Origin: an uncultured Prolixibacteraceae bacterium
GTDB lineage: Bacteria > Bacteroidota > Bacteroidia > Bacteroidales > FEN-979
Direction of reading: 5' to 3'
DNA length: 58,945 bases
Assembly (NCBI GenBank): GCA_964449285.1
Contig: CAYUZX010000013.1
Span: 1-58,945 of the forward strand
Below are positions 11,471-50,559 of this stretch, one piece after another. Made by a program: the position numbers and the translations under genes. The notes under the pieces are model-generated. The model saw only the letters and a list, made by a program, of their open reading frames with translations, was not told where the DNA came from and did not search any database. Within the stretch, counting starts at the first letter, position 1, and each line of letters opens with the position of its first letter.

Positions 11471-11559
11471 GAAAATCGAAATTAGAAATTAGAAATTCCA
11501 CTCTCACCCGATCCCTCAATCCTCTATCCTGGTCCCTCATACCTCATCCTTCGTCCCTG
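11471..11559. repeat. Two heptamer arrays: 4x GAAATTA-like (11471-11498) and 7x GAGGGAC/GAGGAT-like on the minus strand (11511-11559)
   Basis: Read directly; the second array encodes the last codons and TGA stop of the flavin reductase gene. Confidence 0.8.
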
Positions 11560-14380: not shown

Positions 14381-14408
14381 TATTTTATATTTTACATTTT
14401 GCATTTTA
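14381..14408 (+). repeat. 4x (T/C)ATTTT(A/G) heptamer array
   Basis: tatttta tatttta cattttg catttta. Confidence 0.6.
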
Positions 14409-14420
14409 ATTTTTATCTGG

Positions 14421-16307: not shown

Positions 16308-16371
16308 TAGCGAAATAGCGAAATAGTGAAATAGCGAAATTTCGCTACCTCACATTTTCACTACCTCACTG
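16308..16371. repeat. Octamer array 4x TAGYGAAA followed directly by 4 inverted degenerate units
   Basis: tagcgaaa tagcgaaa tagtgaaa tagcgaaa | tttcgcta cctcacat tttcacta cctcactg. Confidence 0.85.
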
Positions 16372-36577: not shown

Positions 36578-38824
36578 ATGAATCCATGGAAACCCTTTCC
36601 ATTGATCCGATTGCTAATCCCATTTCTGGGCGGGGTGGTCTATGCCCTGAAGGAGGCTGGCTGGCAGCCGGAAGAGCGCTGGTTGATAGGAGTTATAGGA
36701 TTTCTTACTACTGGTTTACTGCTCTTTACGTTATTAGGCAAATTACCTTTCAGCCTTCGATGGATCCCTGGTACGACAACCTGCTTGCTTATGCTTTGTT
36801 TGGGAGTGTTAACAGTCCAAAGCAACAGTCCAAAGTTAGTTGGCAGTGAGCAGTGGGTAGTGGGCAGTGAGCAGTTGGCAGTTGGCAGTTCCGATTTTCG
36901 AATTTTTCCCGCTGAAATTGCCGAGCCCCCACGCCATACACCCAAAACAGTGAAGCTGATCGTTAGTAGGTACAACCTCGACACGAATGCAAACGCACTT
37001 ATCCGGGAAGGAAAAGCATTACTGTTTCTCGAAAAGGATACAAACTCACAGGCTCTTCAATATGGCGACTGGATTCTTGTCTCAACCTTGCTGAAACCCG
37101 TGAAGAACGAATCCAACCCCTATGGTTTCGACCCAGCAGGATATTACGGAAGGAAAGGAGTGTTCAGTCAGGGCTGGGTAGGATCAGCTGACTGGAAACT
37201 TGCCGGAATACCTGAACACAGTTCAATCAGAGGTCTGGCATTTGCTTCTCGTGACCGGTTATTGAAGATTTTGCGGGAAAATTCCATAAAAGGGGAGGAG
37301 TTTGCAGTAGCTTCTGCCATCTTACTGGGTTATACCGGTGAGATTGGGCAGGATTTGAGAAGAGGGTTCGCTGCCAGTGGAGCTATGCATATCCTGGCCG
37401 TCTCGGGAATGCATGTGGGGATCATTTTTCTTTTCCTGGAGACCATCTTTACCTTTCTCAATCGCAGGAGGCATGGGCCAACGGTCAAAGCGGTTCTGAT
37501 GATCCTGATGATATGGTGTTACGCGATGGTCACAGGATTATCTCCACCGGTATTCCGGGCAGGCTTGATGCTCAGTCTGGTGATCCTTGGCAGAACGTTC
37601 AAACGGAAACCCGACTCACTGAATGTGGTTGGAGGATCAATGTTTGTCATACTCCTGCTGGACCCAACACTGATTCTCCATCTTGGATTTCAGTTTTCTT
37701 ACCTGGCTGTTTTCGGGATCCTGTTTCTCTATAGGCCCATTGTTGACCTGATCCCTGCTACGGGATGGGCGCCCTCCCGGCTGTGGGGCCTGGTTGCAGT
37801 TTCCATCGCTGCACAAATCGCTACGTTTCCTATCGCGCTCTATGCCTTTCATCAGTTTCCTAACTACTTTATTCTGACCAACATAATTGTACTCCCCTTG
37901 GCCAGCCTGCTGATTTACAGTGGCATCGGGGTACTTGCCCTGAGTCCCGTTCCATTTCTTTCCGCATTTCTTGCGAAGGGACTCTCGTTCATCGCAGGCT
38001 TAATAAATTCTACAATCCGTTTTATCGAAGCGTTACCAGGCTCCACATTCACAGGTCTTTACCCATCGCTCCCGGATGTCCTGATGCTTTACTTTGGAAT
38101 TGTATCAATATGTTGTTTTCTTTTTTTCCGGCGAGCTGTTTGGGCTTACATGTTTTTCATCCTTATCATCTTCTGGTCCTTAACCGGGATCTACAAGGAT
38201 TACATGCGTACCAATCGCAGCATGGTTGTTGTGTTTCAAATAAAGGGAGCTTCTCAGTACGTTTTTGTGGAAGGCCGAAGCGCCGTATGTGTCAAGGATT
38301 ACCAGGCAGCCTGCCAGGAACAATATGCCTTGGAGGTACTTTCTACGTTCATGTCGGCCGAAGGGATTACTACTGCACAAACGACCTATCTGACAGACAG
38401 ACACGCTCATGTTGCAGATGATTTTCGTGAGTTTGGTTCTCTTGCCCGGAAAGGGAACTTGCTGCAGTTTTCCAATAAGCGAATTGCAATCATCTCATCC
38501 GAACTCCCGTTCGCACTTTCAGACACCCTGGAGGTCGATCTTGTGATTGTTCGGAAGAACCCGGATATACATATGGAAACAGTAGTTCGACTTCTCAGGC
38601 CTGAACAAATTGTTATCGACCCAACCAACTCGTGGTACAATGCCCGGAAGTGGAAAGAACAATCAGAAGTGTTGGGTATTCTATGCTATAGTGTTGCGGA
38701 GGATGGGGCGTATGTGCTGGATGTCAGGAGACTGGGATGTCGGATACCGGATAAAAAAAACGCCCCTTTTAAGGGGCACTTTTTGCGGTCTGGACGAGAC
38801 TCGAACTCGCGACCTCCGCCGTGA
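36578..38824 (+). CDS. comEC: ComEC/Rec2 competence protein
   Basis: NPYGFD (DUF4131-like), GAMHILAVSGMHVG, VFRAGLM, GFQFSYLAV; many TM helices; 3' end overlaps tRNA-Asp. Confidence 0.88.
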   Translation: MNPWKPFPLIRLLIPFLGGVVYALKEAGWQPEERWLIGVIGFLTTGLLLFTLLGKLPFSLRWIPGTTTCLLMLCLGVLTVQSNSPKLVGSEQWVVGSEQLAVGSSDFRIFPAEIAEPPRHTPKTVKLIVSRYNLDTNANALIREGKALLFLEKDTNSQALQYGDWILVSTLLKPVKNESNPYGFDPAGYYGRKGVFSQGWVGSADWKLAGIPEHSSIRGLAFASRDRLLKILRENSIKGEEFAVASAILLGYTGEIGQDLRRGFAASGAMHILAVSGMHVGIIFLFLETIFTFLNRRRHGPTVKAVLMILMIWCYAMVTGLSPPVFRAGLMLSLVILGRTFKRKPDSLNVVGGSMFVILLLDPTLILHLGFQFSYLAVFGILFLYRPIVDLIPATGWAPSRLWGLVAVSIAAQIATFPIALYAFHQFPNYFILTNIIVLPLASLLIYSGIGVLALSPVPFLSAFLAKGLSFIAGLINSTIRFIEALPGSTFTGLYPSLPDVLMLYFGIVSICCFLFFRRAVWAYMFFILIIFWSLTGIYKDYMRTNRSMVVVFQIKGASQYVFVEGRSAVCVKDYQAACQEQYALEVLSTFMSAEGITTAQTTYLTDRHAHVADDFREFGSLARKGNLLQFSNKRIAIISSELPFALSDTLEVDLVIVRKNPDIHMETVVRLLRPEQIVIDPTNSWYNARKWKEQSEVLGILCYSVAEDGAYVLDVRRLGCRIPDKKNAPFKGHFLRSGRDSNSRPPP
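36811..36889 (+). repeat. 12-bp direct duplication plus 7x nnGCAGT heptamer array, in frame inside comEC
   Basis: AACAGTCCAAAG at 36811 and 36824; tggcagt gagcagt gggtagt gggcagt gagcagt tggcagt tggcagt at 36841-36889. Confidence 0.9.
38753..38784 (-). terminator. Intrinsic terminator downstream of tRNA-Asp (potentially bidirectional)
   Basis: A8-CGCCCCTT-TT-AAGGGGCAC-T5. Confidence 0.75.
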
Positions 38825-43047: not shown

Positions 43048-43190
43048 GGCTGAAATTCCCCCACGTTGGTATTGCAAATATACTTGTTTGATTGACTGAA
43101 TGCAAATTCATTTTTTCGATTTTTTTTCTGATGAGATATAACCTTTTGAGGTGAAACCCGATTAAGGGGTATAAATCCAGGTTTAATCCA

Positions 43191-44459
43191 ATGATAACCG
43201 AAGAATTTTTACACTATTTGTGGCGATTCAGGCTACTCCAGGCACCTCTTTATTGTGTTTCAGGAGAGCCTGTGATGGTCGTTCATCCGGGAGAATACAA
43301 CCGTAACAGTGGCCCTGATTTTATCAATGCGCGGATTCAGATTGGAGGAACATTGTGGGCGGGAAATGTAGAGATTCATCTGCGTGCGGCCGACTGGTTT
43401 CGTCATGGACATCAGGCAGATCCTGCATATCACAATGTGATACTTCACGTGGTTGACACCTTCGACAGGGAGGTTATTGGTGCAGGTAATCAGCCAATTC
43501 CTTGCCTGGAGGTCAGTGCAAACTATCCGGCTACCCTCATAGCGACTTATAAGGATATCCTGTCGGCAAAGCAATGGATTCCCTGTCAGAACATGTTGGA
43601 AGAGGTTGACCCCTCTATATTCAGGTTATGGGCTCCTGCGCTGGCTATTGAAAGGATTACCATCAGGATTAAATCACTCAGAACATGGCTGAATCATTCG
43701 AAAAACCGGTGGGATGAACTGGCGTATCAGGTACTTGCAAGCGCTATGGGAAATATGATCAATGCCCAACCCTTTGAGCTCCTTGCAAGATCAACTCCTC
43801 TCAGTATCCTAATGCGCCATCGGGACCAGGTTCCCATCCTCGAGGCTCTTTTGTTTGGACAGGCGGGTTTGCTGGACCTATCGTACAAGGAGAGTTACCC
43901 TGTTGAACTTCTCCGGACGTACCTTTTTTACAAGGATAAATATTCCCTGAAACCGCTAGAAAGGGGAACGTGGAAATTCCTCAGGTTAAGGCCTGTCAGT
44001 TTCCCAACCATCCGAATCAGTCAACTCGCTGATATCATTCATCAGCGCGAGGGTTTTCAGGAGAGTCTACAGGAGGATGTACAGGTAGCTGGCTGGATTG
44101 AAATACTCAAGGCAACAGCTAGCGCCTACTGGGATTCTCATTACACCTTCGAACGGGAGTCAGCTTGTCAAGTCAAAAGGCTCGGGACGAATACCATTCA
44201 TCTGCTTCTCATCAATGGTATCGCACCACTGCTTTTTTTATATGGGACGGAGAAAAACCTGACTCATTATTCGGAAAGGACAATCTCCCTGCTTGAAGAG
44301 ATCCCCGGAGAAAAAAACGCCCAAACCACTACCTGGTCCAAACTCGGTATGCCAACCGATAATGCCATCTATACGCAGGCGCTTAAACAGCTTAAGCGTG
44401 CTTATTGTGACGAAAAACGATGCCTGGAATGCAGAATTGGAGCGAGGCTGCTGAGATGA
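43191..44459 (+). CDS. DUF2851 family protein
   Basis: EEFLHYLW, GPDFINA, WAGNVEIH, HGHQADPAYHNVILHVV, LRPVSFPTIR, C-terminal CxxxxCxxCxIG. Confidence 0.88.
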   Translation: MITEEFLHYLWRFRLLQAPLYCVSGEPVMVVHPGEYNRNSGPDFINARIQIGGTLWAGNVEIHLRAADWFRHGHQADPAYHNVILHVVDTFDREVIGAGNQPIPCLEVSANYPATLIATYKDILSAKQWIPCQNMLEEVDPSIFRLWAPALAIERITIRIKSLRTWLNHSKNRWDELAYQVLASAMGNMINAQPFELLARSTPLSILMRHRDQVPILEALLFGQAGLLDLSYKESYPVELLRTYLFYKDKYSLKPLERGTWKFLRLRPVSFPTIRISQLADIIHQREGFQESLQEDVQVAGWIEILKATASAYWDSHYTFERESACQVKRLGTNTIHLLLINGIAPLLFLYGTEKNLTHYSERTISLLEEIPGEKNAQTTTWSKLGMPTDNAIYTQALKQLKRAYCDEKRCLECRIGARLLR

Positions 44460-45118
44460 TGAAACCAACACAGATCATAAAACATTACCTCTCCTTCAGC
44501 AGAGGAGAACAGAGGGGGATCATTATCCTTGTGCTCATTGTTCTATTGATCAATGTCTTCAGGATATATATCCCGAATGTAAGGCGGTTAAAGCCGGTTG
44601 ATTTCTCAGCATTTAGAATTGAATTAGAGAGATTCCAGGGGCAGCCATCTTCACAGTTTACCGATCCCGCCAAACGTTCCGATTCAACAGAATCGAACAA
44701 GAGTTGTCAGAATATCTCATTCATCATTGAGTTGAATCGTGCTGATACACTGGACCTTCAACGACTCAGGGGGATTGGGCCCTCTTTCGCACGCAGGATC
44801 ACCGGTTACAGGAAGAGACTCGGAGGATTTATATCTACCGACCAGCTTATGGAGGTATATGGGATGGATTCGGCCCGGTATCTGGGGATCAGGAAGTACC
44901 TGAGGGTTGATGCTTCAATCATCCAACCGATGAACCTAAATACCATATCTTTCAAAAAATTAATTGCTCACCCTTACATGACTTATGAACTGGCAAAGGA
45001 AATTGCGCTTTATAGGAAGAGGCATAAAGGAATCGGGAATCTGGAAGAGTTGAATGGGTTGAAAAACTACGATAGTGTCACTTTCAGCAGATTGAGGTCT
45101 TACATAAGCGTCAAATGA
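44456..45118 (+). CDS. ComEA-like helix-hairpin-helix protein
   Basis: N-terminal TM helix; ELNRADTLDLQRLRGIGPSFARRI, LGGF, second HhH LNTISFKKL. Confidence 0.85.
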   Translation: MMKPTQIIKHYLSFSRGEQRGIIILVLIVLLINVFRIYIPNVRRLKPVDFSAFRIELERFQGQPSSQFTDPAKRSDSTESNKSCQNISFIIELNRADTLDLQRLRGIGPSFARRITGYRKRLGGFISTDQLMEVYGMDSARYLGIRKYLRVDASIIQPMNLNTISFKKLIAHPYMTYELAKEIALYRKRHKGIGNLEELNGLKNYDSVTFSRLRSYISVK

Positions 45119-45212
45119 CCAAGAAACAAATTCCAAATAACAAATAAATTACAATGAATGAAACTTAATGACCAAATCACAAACATCAAATTTCAAATAA
45201 ATATCAATGACA
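45114..45212 (+). repeat. Degenerate heptamer array (AATGACC/AAATTCC/AAATAAC-like), left arm
   Basis: aatgacc aagaaac aaattcc aaataac aaat aaattac ... aatgacc aaatcac aaacatc aaatttc aaat aaatatc aatgaca. Confidence 0.8.
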
Positions 45213-45575
45213 GAAAACTCAAATACCAAACGTGTCTTTGACTTGGAAGAGAGAACTTTAAAGTTTGCTTTGCGAGTAAGACTTTTCATTAAGAAATTAC
45301 CTGGTACAACAGCTAATATTGAAGATGGTAAGCAGTTAATCAGAGCATCGGGTTCTGTTGGTGCGAATTCTATTGAGGCAAATGAATCTCTTAGTAAAAA
45401 GGACTTCCTCTATAGAATAAAAGTTTGTCTCAAGGAGTCAAAGGAGAGTGCTTATTTTCTGAGACTGATAAAAGAGACTAATTCAGACCAATTTGAAAAG
45501 GAAGCGGCGGAGCTGCTAAATGAAGCAAACGATCTAAAGAAGATATTCTCTTCTATTGTAAAAAAATCGCAATAG
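45207..45575 (+). CDS. Four-helix bundle protein (23S rRNA IVS protein / Avd-like, TIGR02436-like)
   Basis: DLEERTLKFA, KQLIRASGSVGANSIEANESLSKKDF, KESKESAYFLRL, EANDLKKIFSSI. Confidence 0.9.
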   Translation: MTENSNTKRVFDLEERTLKFALRVRLFIKKLPGTTANIEDGKQLIRASGSVGANSIEANESLSKKDFLYRIKVCLKESKESAYFLRLIKETNSDQFEKEAAELLNEANDLKKIFSSIVKKSQ

Positions 45576-45586
45576 CCTATTTGATT

Positions 45587-45628
45587 ATTGGAATTTATTT
45601 GTTATTTGGTAATTGGTCATTGGAATTT
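45587..45628 (-). repeat. Inverted heptamer array, right arm
   Basis: Reverse complement aaattcc aatgacc aattacc aaataac aaat aaattcc aat; 45592-45609 is the exact reverse complement of 45133-45150. Confidence 0.85.
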
Positions 45629-46326
45629 CTATAATGGTAACTTATTTCAGGCGGTATTGGTGGTTTGGGAGCCTTGGGATCATCCGGATGATAACCGGAG
45701 TATGGGTCTTCATTGTCGTCGTCATCCTCATCTTCCCAGTCATAGCGGGGCCGCTGGGGGCCGACTTTGCGGAAATAAATTGCGAGGATTGTTCCGGCAA
45801 GCAAACCCATCAGGTGTCCTTCCCAGGAGATTCGCTCCTTTGGAAAGAATTGTGGGAAGACTCCCCAGATAAGTCCACCATAAAGAAAGGCGACCAGGAG
45901 AGTAATAGCCATGAGTTTGATCTCCCTTCGGATGATACCGCTGGTGAACAAAAAAGCCGCCAGTCCATATACTACTCCGCTGGCGCCGATATGTAACGAT
46001 CCCTGAGCGCCGAGGAACCAGACCCACAGACCGGATATGACATAGATCAAAATCAGTACTTTCCATGCAATTTCCCTGTAGGAATAGAAGAGAAATGCTG
46101 CCAGAAGGAATAGTGGGATCGAGTTGGCAAACAGGTGGTTCCACCCTGCGTGAATAAATGGCATGGTGAAAATTCCGTAGATCCCTTTCCATTGCATGGG
46201 GTATAACCCATATTCGGCAAAAGAGATGTCCAGAATAACCTCCAATGCCTTCACAAACCAGATTATCAGGACGAAGATCGTTGGGAAAAAAAGGCTTCGT
46301 ATCAGTTTATTTCGTTCTGGGTCCAT
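45595..46326 (-). CDS. Rhomboid family intramembrane serine protease
   Basis: PFIHAGWNHLFAN, HIGASGVVYG, SWEGHLMG. Confidence 0.92.
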   Translation of the reverse strand: MDPERNKLIRSLFFPTIFVLIIWFVKALEVILDISFAEYGLYPMQWKGIYGIFTMPFIHAGWNHLFANSIPLFLLAAFLFYSYREIAWKVLILIYVISGLWVWFLGAQGSLHIGASGVVYGLAAFLFTSGIIRREIKLMAITLLVAFLYGGLIWGVFPQFFPKERISWEGHLMGLLAGTILAIYFRKVGPQRPRYDWEDEDDDDNEDPYSGYHPDDPKAPKPPIPPEISYHYRNSNDQLPNNK

Positions 46327-46451
46327 GCTTGCAATATTTCCCGGTTTTGGCAGTTAAAAGTAGTGAAAAAGGTGGAACCCGGAGGGGTTTCTTAAAAAAT
46401 CCTACCTTTGGGCACCGTAATAATGCAGTGTCAAAATTAATAATATATACC

Positions 46452-48059
46452 ATGAAAACCACGTCGGACCTGCCATATAGAATAACCATTCAACTATTCC
46501 TACTGTTATTGTTTCCACTGTTTCTCACAGCTCAGAATTCAACCCCCAATGAAGGCCTTAGAAAGTTACAGGTTGCTTTGCAGATCATCGATTTTGCCTA
46601 TGTAGATTCTGTGCATGAGGATAAACTGGTTGAGACTGCAATCGTGGAGATGCTCAAAGATCTTGATCCCCATTCGATCTACATTCCAAAAGAGGAACTG
46701 CAGCGGGCCAACGAACCATTGCAAGGTAATTTTGAAGGAATCGGGGTTCAGTTTGAGATACTCAAGGATACAATTGTCGTCGTACATCCACTTACGGGAG
46801 GTCCTTCCGAAAAACTCGGAATCAGCTCAGGAGATAAGATCGTTAAAATTGACGGAGAGGATGTAGTTGGGAAACATGTGAATAATCAGTTCGTTCTTGA
46901 TCATCTTCGCGGGAAAAAAGGAACAAAAGTCAACGTGTCAATCTACCGTAAAGGGAGAAAAGGCTTGCTCGAGTACGTCATTATACGAGACAAGATACCC
47001 ATAAACAGTATTGATGCAGTGTATATGATCGCCCCCGAAATTGGGTACATCAACCTTAACCGGTTCTCTCTTACCACAACCCAGGAGTTCCAGGATGCTG
47101 TTAAACTTCTGAAGGGTGAAGGGATGAAGAGACTGATCCTGGACCTGAGAAACAATGCCGGAGGGTATATGGCACCTGCGATTGAACTCTCCGACGAATT
47201 CCTCGGATTGGGGAAAATCATTGTTTATACTGAAGGGATGAGGAGCCAGAGAGAGAATTTCTACTCTACCTTCAGGGGTAATTTTGAAAATGGGAAGCTG
47301 GTGATTATGATCAATGAAAACAGTGCATCCTCCAGTGAGATTGTTGCCGGTGCCATTCAGGACTGGGACCGTGGGTTGATTGTGGGTCGGCGTTCGTTCG
47401 GCAAGGGTTTGGTTCAGCGGCCTTTCAACCTGCCCGACACGTCCCAGATCAGGTTAACCACAGCCAGATATCATACACCTTCAGGCCGTTATATTCAGAA
47501 ACCATATAAGAATGGAGTTGAAGAGTATTACAAGGATTTTGCCAGGCGCTATAGCAGGGGAGAACTGGTTCATGCTGACAGTATCAAACTTCCGGATTCA
47601 CTTAAATACCAAACTGCAAATGGCCGGACTGTCTATGGTGGCGGCGGAATCATGCCCGATGTCTTTATTCCCTGGGATTCTACTTTCCTGACTGATTATT
47701 ATATTGATGTGCGGCGGAATAATATCGTCAACCCACTTGTGAGCGAATATGTTGACAAAAACCGGCAGGAACTACTGAAAGAATTTCCGGATTTCGCATC
47801 CTATAAAACCAATTTTGAAATTGGGGAGCCATTGATGGAACTCTTCTTTAATGCTACTGAAGAAGCTGATATGGAGAAGAATGAAGAACAATTCACGACT
47901 TCTGAGCCCTTGATCAAAGCACAGATCAAAGGGTTGATTGCCCAAAAACTTTACAACATCACTTCCTTCTATATCATTGCCAATGAGATGGATCCCGAAG
48001 TGATACGGGCAGTGGAGATCATTCAGGATAATAGCCTTTTCGAGGGATTATCGAATTGA
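46452..48059 (+). CDS. S41 family carboxy-terminal processing protease
   Basis: LDPHS, PDZ domain (GIGVQF, GDKIVKID), LDLRNNAGG, SASSSEIVAGAIQD, SFGKGLVQ; start at MKTTS after TACCTTTG. Confidence 0.93.
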   Translation: MKTTSDLPYRITIQLFLLLLFPLFLTAQNSTPNEGLRKLQVALQIIDFAYVDSVHEDKLVETAIVEMLKDLDPHSIYIPKEELQRANEPLQGNFEGIGVQFEILKDTIVVVHPLTGGPSEKLGISSGDKIVKIDGEDVVGKHVNNQFVLDHLRGKKGTKVNVSIYRKGRKGLLEYVIIRDKIPINSIDAVYMIAPEIGYINLNRFSLTTTQEFQDAVKLLKGEGMKRLILDLRNNAGGYMAPAIELSDEFLGLGKIIVYTEGMRSQRENFYSTFRGNFENGKLVIMINENSASSSEIVAGAIQDWDRGLIVGRRSFGKGLVQRPFNLPDTSQIRLTTARYHTPSGRYIQKPYKNGVEEYYKDFARRYSRGELVHADSIKLPDSLKYQTANGRTVYGGGGIMPDVFIPWDSTFLTDYYIDVRRNNIVNPLVSEYVDKNRQELLKEFPDFASYKTNFEIGEPLMELFFNATEEADMEKNEEQFTTSEPLIKAQIKGLIAQKLYNITSFYIIANEMDPEVIRAVEIIQDNSLFEGLSN

Positions 48060-49368: not shown

Positions 49369-50559
49369 TCAGTTCAATACCTGGGTCACCAGGGTTGCAG
49401 CCTCCTGAAGGGTGATGGCAGAATGAACACGCAGCCCCGACTCATCTATCAGTTTCTTTCCTTCTTCGGCATTCGTGCCCTGAAGTCTTACGATGATTGG
49501 AACGGGGATATCTCCGATGTTGTGATAGGCGTCAACTACCCCCTGAGCTACCCGGTCGCAACGAACAATACCGCCGAAAATATTGAGCAGAATCGCTTTT
49601 ACGTTGGGATCTTTCAGGATGATACGGAACCCCTCTTCCACACGCTTGGCATTTGCACTCCCTCCAACGTCAAGGAAGTTTGCCGGCTCGCCTCCAGAGA
49701 TTTTGATGATATCCATGGTCGCCATGGCCAGTCCAGCTCCATTAACCATGCAACCCACGTTTCCGTCCAGTTTAACATAGTTGAGGTCGAACGCCGTGGC
49801 TTCCACCTCAATGGGATCTTCTTCATCGAAATCACGCATGGAGACGATGTCGGGATGACGGAACAACGCATTGTTGTCGATAGTCAGTTTAGCATCGGCG
49901 GCCAGAATTTTATTGTCTGAAGTTTTGAAAACCGGGTTGATTTCAACGAGTGAAGCATCGGAGTTGACATACGTATTGTAGACTGCCTTAACAAATTTGA
50001 TCATGTTTTTATATGCCTCTCCGGATAGTCCCAGGTTGAAGGCCACCTTCCTGGACTGAAACTGCTGCAAACCGATGATCGGATCGATCTCTTCTGTAAA
50101 GATCAATGCGGGTGTCTCTTCAGCAACCTTTTCAATATCCATTCCGCCCCTTGGGGAGTACATCAGAATGATGTGGCCTTTCTGCCGGTTAAGAAGCACA
50201 CTGAAGTAAATCTCGGCGGGTTCAGTCGGACCCGGATAAAAGATATTTTGTTCAACGTATATCTTTCTGACTTTCTTGCCTTTAGCACTGGTTTGAGGAG
50301 TAACCAGGTTCATTCCAATAATCTGGTCGGCATAGAATCGTACCTCATCCAGTGTTTTAGCGACTTTTACACCGCCGCCTTTTCCACGCCCTCCGGCATG
50401 TACCTGAGCCTTGATCACCCATTTGTCGGATCCAGTGGAGTTCTGGATGACCTCCGCTGCTTTAACTGCTTCAGATGAAGTGTTAGCAAGAATTCCTTCC
50501 GGAACCGGTACTCCGTTTTTGCGGAGAAGCATCTTGCTCTGGTATTCGTGTAGATTCAT
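49369..50559 (-). CDS. sucC: Succinyl-CoA ligase (ADP-forming) beta subunit
   Basis: [50 protein letters not shown]. Confidence 0.97.

Follow-up and report, generated by a model that had tools for sequence, protein, structure and literature searches.

A four-helix-bundle gene between inverted word arrays at a ComEA/rhomboid junction of an uncultured Prolixibacteraceae bacterium

The PF05635/TIGR02436 proteins are a large orphan family whose sole textbook context is the intervening sequence (IVS) of ribosomal RNA (rRNA). The stretch of DNA analysed here (58,945 nucleotides of contig CAYUZX010000013.1 from an uncultured Prolixibacteraceae bacterium; hereafter the window) carries a gene for a 122-aa four-helix-bundle protein of this family between a ComEA-like gene and a convergent rhomboid-family gene, enclosed by inverted arms that reach into both neighbours. 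What is such a gene, with such flanks, doing between two protein-coding genes? We consider it to be one copy of a recurrent cassette, in which a PF05635/TIGR02436 gene lies between inverted arms of a 7-8-nt word specific to that cassette, an arrangement with the layout of an IVS but placed between protein-coding genes. We give this reading a probability of roughly 0.55. The cassette as such is well supported; processing of its RNA and binding of its word by the protein are roles that we infer.

Inverted arms around family genes

A perfect 18-nt inverted repeat, CCAAATAACAAATAAATT, brackets the gene (Table 1), as the initial annotation had reported. When searched across the window with up to three mismatches it matches at just these two sites (0.10 matches expected; two were reached in 1 of 100 shuffles), and a repeat search extends it to 37-nt arms (45119-45155 and 45587-45623) that are 84% complementary. 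The left arm is doubled by a direct repeat of 50 nt, and the G004 ortholog, from the same genus, has one copy instead of two. Because the left arm reads in an imperfect 7-nt phase (AATGACC AAGAAAC AAATTCC AAATAAC AAATAAA ...), its units are degenerate heptamers, not clean repeats; Tandem Repeats Finder (TRF) calls a period of 7 there at low threshold only. The overlap of the arms with coding sequence was also described correctly: the TGA of the ComEA-like gene (45116-45118) falls inside the first left-arm unit, the ATG of the four-helix ORF (open reading frame; 45207) falls inside the inner of the two left-arm copies, and the right arm encodes the stop codon (45595-45597) and the final 11 codons (RNSNDQLPNNK) of the rhomboid gene on the minus strand.

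This layout recurs in the source genome (G000; 3.3 Mb, 142 contigs, 95% complete), where nine TIGR02436 matches were identified among approximately 2850 called ORFs. Seven of the nine genes lie, by eye, between inverted runs of short words, each copy with a word of its own. We defined a flank score by aligning the two 130-nt flanks of a gene in inverted orientation, without gaps, and taking the best match; it was computed for the 1079 ORFs of G000 of at most 250 aa. The median is 7.5 and the 99th percentile 14.6; the gene at the ComEA/rhomboid junction scores 22.0 (rank 3), and family members occupy ranks 2, 3, 5 and 8, four of the eight best scores. Six genomes of the same bacterial family were then scored at 40 loci of the protein family, with 200-nt flanks. 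A threshold of 17 is reached or exceeded by 28 of them, every one with its own 7-8-nt word, and their arms hold approximately 3-7 words each. The initial annotation had suggested examining the other four-helix genes for inverted periodic flanks, and these counts bear out its expectation. Among the 12 loci under the threshold, one (L061) is there due to a wrong start codon and three belong to a slowly evolving, arm-less subfamily of 141-143 aa, which acts as a built-in negative control.

Six related genomes carry between 4 and 17 copies each, and the family is present in 119 of 151 sampled genomes of the phylum, often with 5-19 copies. A phylum sample of 30 loci from 30 genomes was compared with 59 shifted intervals in the same loci. 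The median flank score is 14.25 versus 8.0 in these controls; a score of at least 14 is reached by 17/30 loci versus 1/59 controls, and of at least 17 by 9/30 versus 0/59. The layout is a real, non-random feature, neither a product of chance nor a one-off.

Members of the arm-less subfamily were located in G000 (C47, 19393-19713; L008), G005 (C15; L074) and G017 (C176; L065). They sit on very short branches over two genera, with a ratio of nonsynonymous to synonymous substitution rates (dN/dS) of 0.10 between G000 and G005. They differ from the cassette copies and look like stable members of a housekeeping type.

The 122-aa ORF exceeds the cut-offs of both PF05635 (43.5 bits; cut-off 33.8) and TIGR02436 (69.2 bits; cut-off 24). 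A profile made from a family alignment that includes it matches 2rld_A (1.1e-38) and 2gsc_A (2.4e-25), and these closest solved relatives each have five chains per entry. In excerpts of PMC4990558, a Xanthomonas family protein is described as a toroidal homopentamer. The initial annotation supposed that the copy in the window might be drifting, given its motif ANSIEA. In an alignment of 20 family members with the 122-aa protein as reference, E80 is invariant and Q43, S50 and N54 are at least 90% conserved, all of them kept here, and the S of ANSIEA occupies a variable column (Y, I, L, V). Compared with the G004 ortholog, the proportion of nonsynonymous differences (pN) is 0.166 and that of synonymous differences (pS), which is saturated, 0.834. 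Because pN is far below pS and the conserved positions of the family are intact, with the Y-to-S change confined to a variable one, the gene is under purifying selection and not drifting.

Table 1. Features of the ComEA/rhomboid junction (positions in the window)
Feature	Coordinates	Strand	Remarks
HHH_3 / ComEA-like gene	44420..45118	+	upstream neighbour; start codon putative
Left arm, outer copy	45111..45163		degenerate heptamers; 18-nt core 45133-45150 (+); pairs with right arm
Left arm, inner copy	45167..45216		direct duplicate of 45114-45163 (76%); contains ATG
Four-helix-bundle gene, 122 aa	45207..45575	+	PF05635 / TIGR02436 (S23p, Avd-like)
Right arm	45578..45628		18-nt core 45592-45609 (-)
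Rhomboid-family gene	45595..46326	-	convergent downstream neighbour; C-terminal tail enters right arm

Cassettes as DNA units and the history of the junction

Comparison of relatives shows that gene and arms behave as one DNA unit, which has been duplicated, inverted and deleted, leaving arm-only hairpins. Two G004 cassettes lie 2.8 kb apart on one contig with 88.6% identity over 490 nt, and where their homology breaks off, just beyond the arms, lies another short inverted repeat (GTTACTATT ... AATAGTAAC). The orthologous cassettes G000 C2 and G005 C8 have opposite orientations between conserved flanks, the result of an inversion between the arms.

The arm sequence of the ComEA/rhomboid copy forms a small family dispersed over the genome, with members at four other, gene-less hairpins. 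With a profile built from eight arms, nhmmer found these gene-less arm pairs at C91, C17, C6 and C42 (loops of approximately 35-55 nt), together with three further single arms and the pair at C13. A 21-nt core is identical in C91, C6 and the G004 cassette. G005 lacks the C17 hairpin, and in G008 one built from other words takes its place; presence or absence of this hairpin may vary in other congeners too. By eye, the C17 hairpin (G000:C17:49799-49924 and 49995-50070; L164, approximately 1000-1270) lies about 70 nt upstream of an apparent tRNA gene. One short metagenome contig has both arms 46 nt apart with other flanks, and two contig joints that skip the cassette also have other flanks, being arm-only hairpins elsewhere in the community. 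A 19-mer core was counted in 11 congeners with at most two mismatches (a reversed-pattern control gave 0-1 matches per genome). Matches, with exact ones in brackets, number 21 (6) in G004, 8 (0) in G002, 6 (3) in G000, 4 (0) in G009, 3 (0) in both G006 and G005, 1 (0) in each of G007, G001, G008 and G010, and 0 (0) in G003. Exact cores are confined to the two genomes with the matching gene, and none of the 22 matches in the other nine is exact.

At the ComEA/rhomboid junction itself, DUF2851 is encoded upstream of the ComEA-like gene and an S41 protease downstream of the rhomboid gene, and the order DUF2851, ComEA, rhomboid, S41 is conserved through the bacterial family. The initial annotation proposed to compare this junction in relatives. 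The four-helix gene is not stably syntenic there: it is present in 2 of 11 same-genus genomes and at 3 of the 30 loci examined in the family and order. Its holders are G000, G004 (72% identical) and G017, from another genus (approximately 40% identical; the contig ends in the left arm). In a tree of 37 family proteins, their junction genes group together as a clade (support 97/91); despite this, the arms of G017, which consist of AATTAGGTC words, are unrelated to those of G000 and G004. A tree of three flanking genes places G000 and G004 in different subclades of the genus.

Relics of the arms persist at several of the other junctions. The G002 junction has a gene-less hairpin of 23 perfect bp, with a loop of 28 nt, that includes the same 18-mer; G009 retains the left-arm 18-mer with the gene gone, and G001 a shorter arm relic. 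In G007 and G003 the two neighbouring genes overlap. Between the G004 and G002 arms, a double change is compensated on the opposite arm (CAAATGCCAA/TTGGCATTTG versus CAAAAACCAA/TTGGTTTTTG). The simplest reading is an ancestral cassette that was lost at least five times within the genus, and recent insertion at the junction is unlikely. The ComEA/rhomboid copy has long resided there under selection, and most relatives have lost theirs.

Other structures were observed at the same place. The G005 junction (L011) holds an unrelated hairpin of approximately 110 nt (GCTGAAAATCAG.. / ..CTGAAAATAAAAGG, with an inner CCCTAAAGGGAG palindrome), and the G010 junction (L018) has periodic AT-rich repeats and a second palindrome around a stretch of N. 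The ComEA/rhomboid junction is a hot spot for different hairpin elements.

The proposal in the initial annotation of a minimal mobile or excisable cassette thus survives in part. That gene and arms form a discrete cassette is supported, and mobility of this kind of cassette is supported indirectly, by one unit duplication, one flip and the four gene-less hairpins. A recent insertion or excision at this junction is not supported: the copy there looks ancestral and repeatedly lost, and no contig in four runs skips the cassette between the window's own flanks. For the ComEA/rhomboid copy, mobility would not be recent.

Words, their genes and transcripts across the arms

A word tends to be more abundant in genomes that hold the matching gene. 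For AATGCAGG, the arm word of the C4 gene, 11 congeners were compared by counting overlapping pattern windows, with the cassette's own arms included. Pattern matches number 65 in G000, 46 in G008, 39 in G007 and 35 in G002, all with an intact ortholog (at least 73% identity); 35 in G006 and 32 in G004, which have a gene fragment only; and 15 in G001, 6 in G010, 3 in G009, 1 in G003 and 0 in G005, where no gene was found. In G000 these matches form 18 arrays, two at the gene and 16 away from it. The GGAAATTAG word has 194 matches in G005 and 23 in G002, the two genomes with a close ortholog, and 15 in G004, with a gene fragment; apart from G006, which is discussed below, the remaining seven genomes have 0-10. 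Because G005 has 194 GGAAATTAG matches despite 0 for AATGCAGG, it is not array-poor; it uses the word whose gene it holds. When AATGCAGG is counted as separate arrays the ranking is less clean, and the related genomes are not independent samples.

With synonymous sites saturated (pS of approximately 0.8), the same word at non-orthologous loci needs a word-specifying factor, for which the matching protein would be the obvious candidate. We tentatively suggest, at clearly less than even odds, that each family protein binds arrays of its own 7-8-nt word in DNA or RNA, one word per pentamer subunit, and thereby controls, maintains or spreads its own arms and dozens of scattered solitary arrays.

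In the mechanism that we propose for the cassette, the arms would pair both in single-stranded DNA and in transcripts crossing the whole element. For the ComEA/rhomboid copy, which along with its two orthologs lacks a promoter box of its own and has its ATG directly against the arm, expression and any arm-spanning transcript would therefore come from read-through of the ComEA-like gene. Pairing would give an interrupted stem of approximately 40 bp that might be cut by RNase III, by analogy with the rRNA IVS; a gene for RNase III is encoded in the genome. At the DNA level the same stem could promote flips and loop deletions. Complementarity of the arms may be kept by slippage and arm-to-arm templated repair, not by selection on single RNA base pairs, and the protein is probably a sequence-specific partner of its own arm word, which would account for the tendency of word copies elsewhere to accompany the matching gene.

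The predicted folds agree with the suggestion in the initial annotation that the RNA folds with the ORF in the loop. For 45105-45640 the predicted minimum free energy is -120.3 kcal/mol on the sense strand (z -3.1) and -118.3 kcal/mol on the antisense strand (z -3.45); the arms form the closing helix on both, and 0/100 shuffles are as stable. Two RNA-library contigs cover 45390-45626 and 45450-45655, in the 3' half of the gene and the right arm, with no differences, and having neither strand nor end information they do not prove transcription. The ComEA-like gene had no coverage in the RNA runs, an observation that carries no weight. None of seven terminator-like sites predicted in 44300-46500 falls in the arms.

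In approximately 22 of the 40 family loci (by eye; e.g., L001, L002, L004 and L007) the left arm is separated from the ATG by a conserved box, with the layout TATAACCTTTTG .. T-run, TTTYC(N)GGATTAAT .. A-run, GGAAAA. Genome-wide, the first box, TATAACCTTTTG, has 24 occurrences, one of them at 43138-43147, 53 nt before the DUF2851 ATG, and it looks like an ordinary promoter element, presumably related to the -7 box of Bacteroidota. The GGATTAAT part between T-run and A-run could be a 5'-UTR (5' untranslated region) hairpin or an operator.

The arms also have a polarity. In the 5' to 3' direction leading into the cassette, purines predominate in the arm of 29/31 cassettes of the family sample and 16/19 of the phylum sample, and G outnumbers C in 27/31 and 19/20, respectively; by symmetry, this polarity is independent of gene orientation. 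Gene-less inverted pairs in G000 (n=22) tend in this direction too, with 14 G-first, 6 C-first and 2 ties; the arms of the ComEA/rhomboid copy are A-rich with more C than G. We considered that a C-rich exit arm might be a Rho entry site that is masked once the stem forms, and that both 3' ends of a break might undergo templated extension, an idea weakened by the lack of a reverse transcriptase.

These arms belong to a genome that is rich in short tandem arrays. At low threshold, TRF reports 702 rows of period 7 in G000. Arrays of period 7 or 8 with three or more copies number 568, approximately one per 6 kb, and fall into 174 word families; the largest of these are AATTACG (49), ATCCGGC (34), AACTGCC (34) and ACGTCTC (33). 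Many contigs begin or end in an array, including the start of the window. An inverted partner within 1.2 kb was found for 27/903 tandem arrays; five of these 27 enclose a family gene, and seven are hairpins with a loop of less than 150 nt. Pairing by identical canonical TRF word gave eight inverted pairs and missed most arms, and direct flank alignment was used instead. In the comparison of array orientation with neighbouring genes, crude ORF calling placed 266/568 arrays inside 'ORFs'. The inverted CATCCGG pair at C3:80207-80738, with cassette-sized spacing, has no family gene. Across 23 closed genomes from the phylum, sampled at 40 kb per genome, array density correlates with family copy number (Spearman 0.53, p 0.009; 0.526 after three arrays beside family genes were dropped), which is only a hint, as the sample is small and kinship is ignored.

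Arrays in the window include 1-53 (CGTCTTA x7.6), 1901-1950 (AGGGACG) and 36838-36889 (AGTGGGC), and further ones lie at 11478-11497, 14382-14413 and 16308-16340 (TAGCGAAA). Two ORFs of G000 without a Pfam match are flanked by repeats of other kinds. A 70-aa ORF at G000:C11:3690-3902 (L040) has the top flank inverted-repeat score in the genome (38), which stems from GC-rich palindromes, GGGGAGGG..CCCTCCCC, on both sides, a repeat class other than the heptamer arms. A 196-aa ORF at G000:C70:14547-15137 (L041:301-891) has an HFHFLV-type motif and the palindrome CCTTCCAGGTTT..AAACCTGGAAGG on both sides. We take it to resemble a REP-associated tyrosine transposase (RAYT) with repetitive extragenic palindromic (REP) elements, and its repeats differ from the heptamer arms.

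Known systems and competing explanations

The closest known system is the 23S rRNA IVS of Coxiella, Leptospira and others. Shared with it are the same protein family in the loop, a long stem from terminal inverted repeats, tandem heptamers beside the ORF, a size of approximately 0.4-0.5 kb and the lack of an encoded mobility enzyme. According to excerpts of PMC4990558, the Coxiella burnetii IVS (helix 45) has a 28-bp terminal stem and is excised by RNase III, tandem GACAGAT heptamers, variable in number between strains, precede the ATG of its S23p ORF, and that ORF is reported as decaying. The cassette, in contrast, is located between two protein-coding genes, overlapping both at its ends, and not in an rRNA gene; its arms are themselves word arrays, a promoter-like box lies within the arms of most sister cassettes, and its gene is under purifying selection. 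Cutting by RNase III is known for the IVS; for the cassette it is a prediction from the shared layout. An Rfam search in E-value mode identified no rRNA at 11 family loci, this copy included; three weak eukaryote- or Rickettsia-type matches in that search were far under gathering scores and are irrelevant. Because the cassette fails the test of an rRNA location, it is IVS-like and not an IVS.

Heptanucleotide repeats are a second point of comparison. Cyanobacterial short tandemly repeated repetitive (STRR) sequences are tandem heptanucleotide repeats, and like the TAACTGA repeats they resemble the cassette arms in being intergenic tandem 7-nt arrays with many word variants, abundant in some genomes and unexplained. 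TAACTGA repeats occur in Beggiatoaceae, Cyanobacteria and some Bacteroidetes; in the excerpts of PMC4679880 they are mostly direct and near start codons, and an unidentified regulator is proposed for them. The cassette arrays, in contrast, form inverted pairs around a specific gene. The terms S23, intervening and four-helix have 0 occurrences in those excerpts (PMC4679880), where the protein family is never mentioned. We found no account in the literature of non-rRNA cassettes of PF05635/TIGR02436 or of a link between this family and genome-wide heptamer arrays.

Miniature inverted-repeat transposable elements (MITEs) and their parent elements share terminal inverted repeats with the cassette, as well as the combination of one gene-bearing copy and gene-less hairpins with the same ends in intergenic spacers. 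Unlike them, the cassette has no transposase or evident target-site duplication, its tandem-word arms turn over quickly, and what it carries is a 122-aa helical bundle in which no catalytic motif is known. A further comparison is with Avd, the accessory protein of diversity-generating retroelements, which shares a superfamily with PF05635, has a related four-helix-bundle fold and forms a pentameric ring. The fold is shared, and Avd is a nucleic-acid-binding partner protein; in contrast, no reverse transcriptase was found in this genome, and there is none beside the cassette gene. Nothing of the kind of a template/variable repeat pair was found in 44900-45900, the only stretch scanned for repeats.

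Several observations weigh against the cassette reading. As the initial annotation noted, no transposase or reverse transcriptase is evident: none is encoded among the neighbouring genes, no transposase or recombinase was identified in the cassette or its neighbours (trans-acting enzymes were not searched for systematically), and a search of the 95%-complete genome gave no RVT_1 domain. Neither the G004 C46 duplicate nor the C17 site has an evident target-site duplication, although the element ends are too imprecisely defined for a firm statement. The initial annotation also proposed to look for excised or circular forms, and no excised, circular or empty-site form with the window's flanks was found in four runs, a weak test on contigs only. 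The pattern at the junction looks like vertical descent with at least five losses and not like insertion. Ordinary genes are also bracketed by inverted arrays of common words (rpe, aat, glutaredoxin, an ECF sigma factor and atpG). Arm mismatches in 31 cassettes comprise 32 of G:U type, 57 of A:C type and 83 transversions, and the missing G:U excess speaks against selection on sense-strand RNA pairing. Where the promoter-like box lies inside the arms, the cassette's own transcript would lack the 5' arm. The mismatch counts, the box and its recurrence in the genome all argue against a role at the RNA level alone. As to the words, G006 (87% complete) is a clear exception, having 33 GGAAATTAG matches although the gene was not found with the query used, and G001 (69% complete), with seven AATGCAGG arrays and no gene found, is a partial exception. 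All compared genomes are drafts, prone to break at repeats and to lose such regions.

Four other explanations were weighed. The family proteins might be word-specific binding proteins with a regulon, the pentamer binding tandem words, with autoregulatory or insulating arms, solitary arrays as targets and incidental mobility. The TRAP ring, which binds repeated triplets, offers an analogy. The five chains of 2rld and 2gsc and the Xanthomonas homopentamer (PMC4990558) fit this explanation, as do the approximately 3-7 words per arm, the 16 of 18 AATGCAGG arrays away from the gene, the word counts that tend to follow the gene (with G005 the telling case), the need for a specifier at saturated sites, and the regulator proposed in PMC4679880. 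We nevertheless think it rather unlikely: word binding is a prediction, G006 and G001 are exceptions, the array-wise ranking is less clean among kin genomes, 174 word families face nine family genes, and unit duplication and flips are left unexplained. More doubtful still is that the arms are a local RNA structure of an ordinary gene, a stem that stabilises, processes or terminates convergent transcripts with no element and no mobility. Apparent vertical inheritance of the junction gene over two genera under purifying selection would suit it, as would the folding of both strands with the arms as closing stem and the arm-only hairpin of G002, placed where a terminator of convergent genes is expected. 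It does not account for the same arm core at unrelated gene-less loci, for the duplication of one cassette and the flip of another, or for the many promoter boxes inside arms, and neither terminator-like sites nor a G:U bias mark the arms.

That a small gene simply fell between opposite arrays in an array-rich genome is very improbable. With 568 arrays in 174 word families, and housekeeping genes sometimes bracketed by inverted arrays, some such cases are expected, but chance would not produce the four top-eight ranks of the family among 1079 ORFs or the 28/40 and 17/30 loci against 1/59 controls, nor would it spare the arm-less subfamily in the same genomes or replace arms between orthologs and yet leave them inverted. 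A remnant or accessory gene (Avd) of a diversity-generating retroelement has next to no probability; the family name is mentioned in a review (PMC10053308), but the genome has no RVT_1 match and nine family copies, the neighbours are DUF2851, ComEA-like, rhomboid and S41 genes, and the retroelement was rejected as a candidate since no reverse transcriptase was found in the genome.

The recurrent cassette has consequences for the family and for the genomes that carry it. In practice, heptamer arrays break assemblies, and many contigs of the source genome end in them. If each family protein does bind arrays of its own word, arrays of the STRR and TAACTGA type and the rRNA IVS would be different manifestations of a single protein-repeat system. 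Should the rRNA insert be no more than one of the landing sites that a general cassette uses, the function of the protein, the existence of the IVS and the origin of heptamer arrays would become one testable problem.

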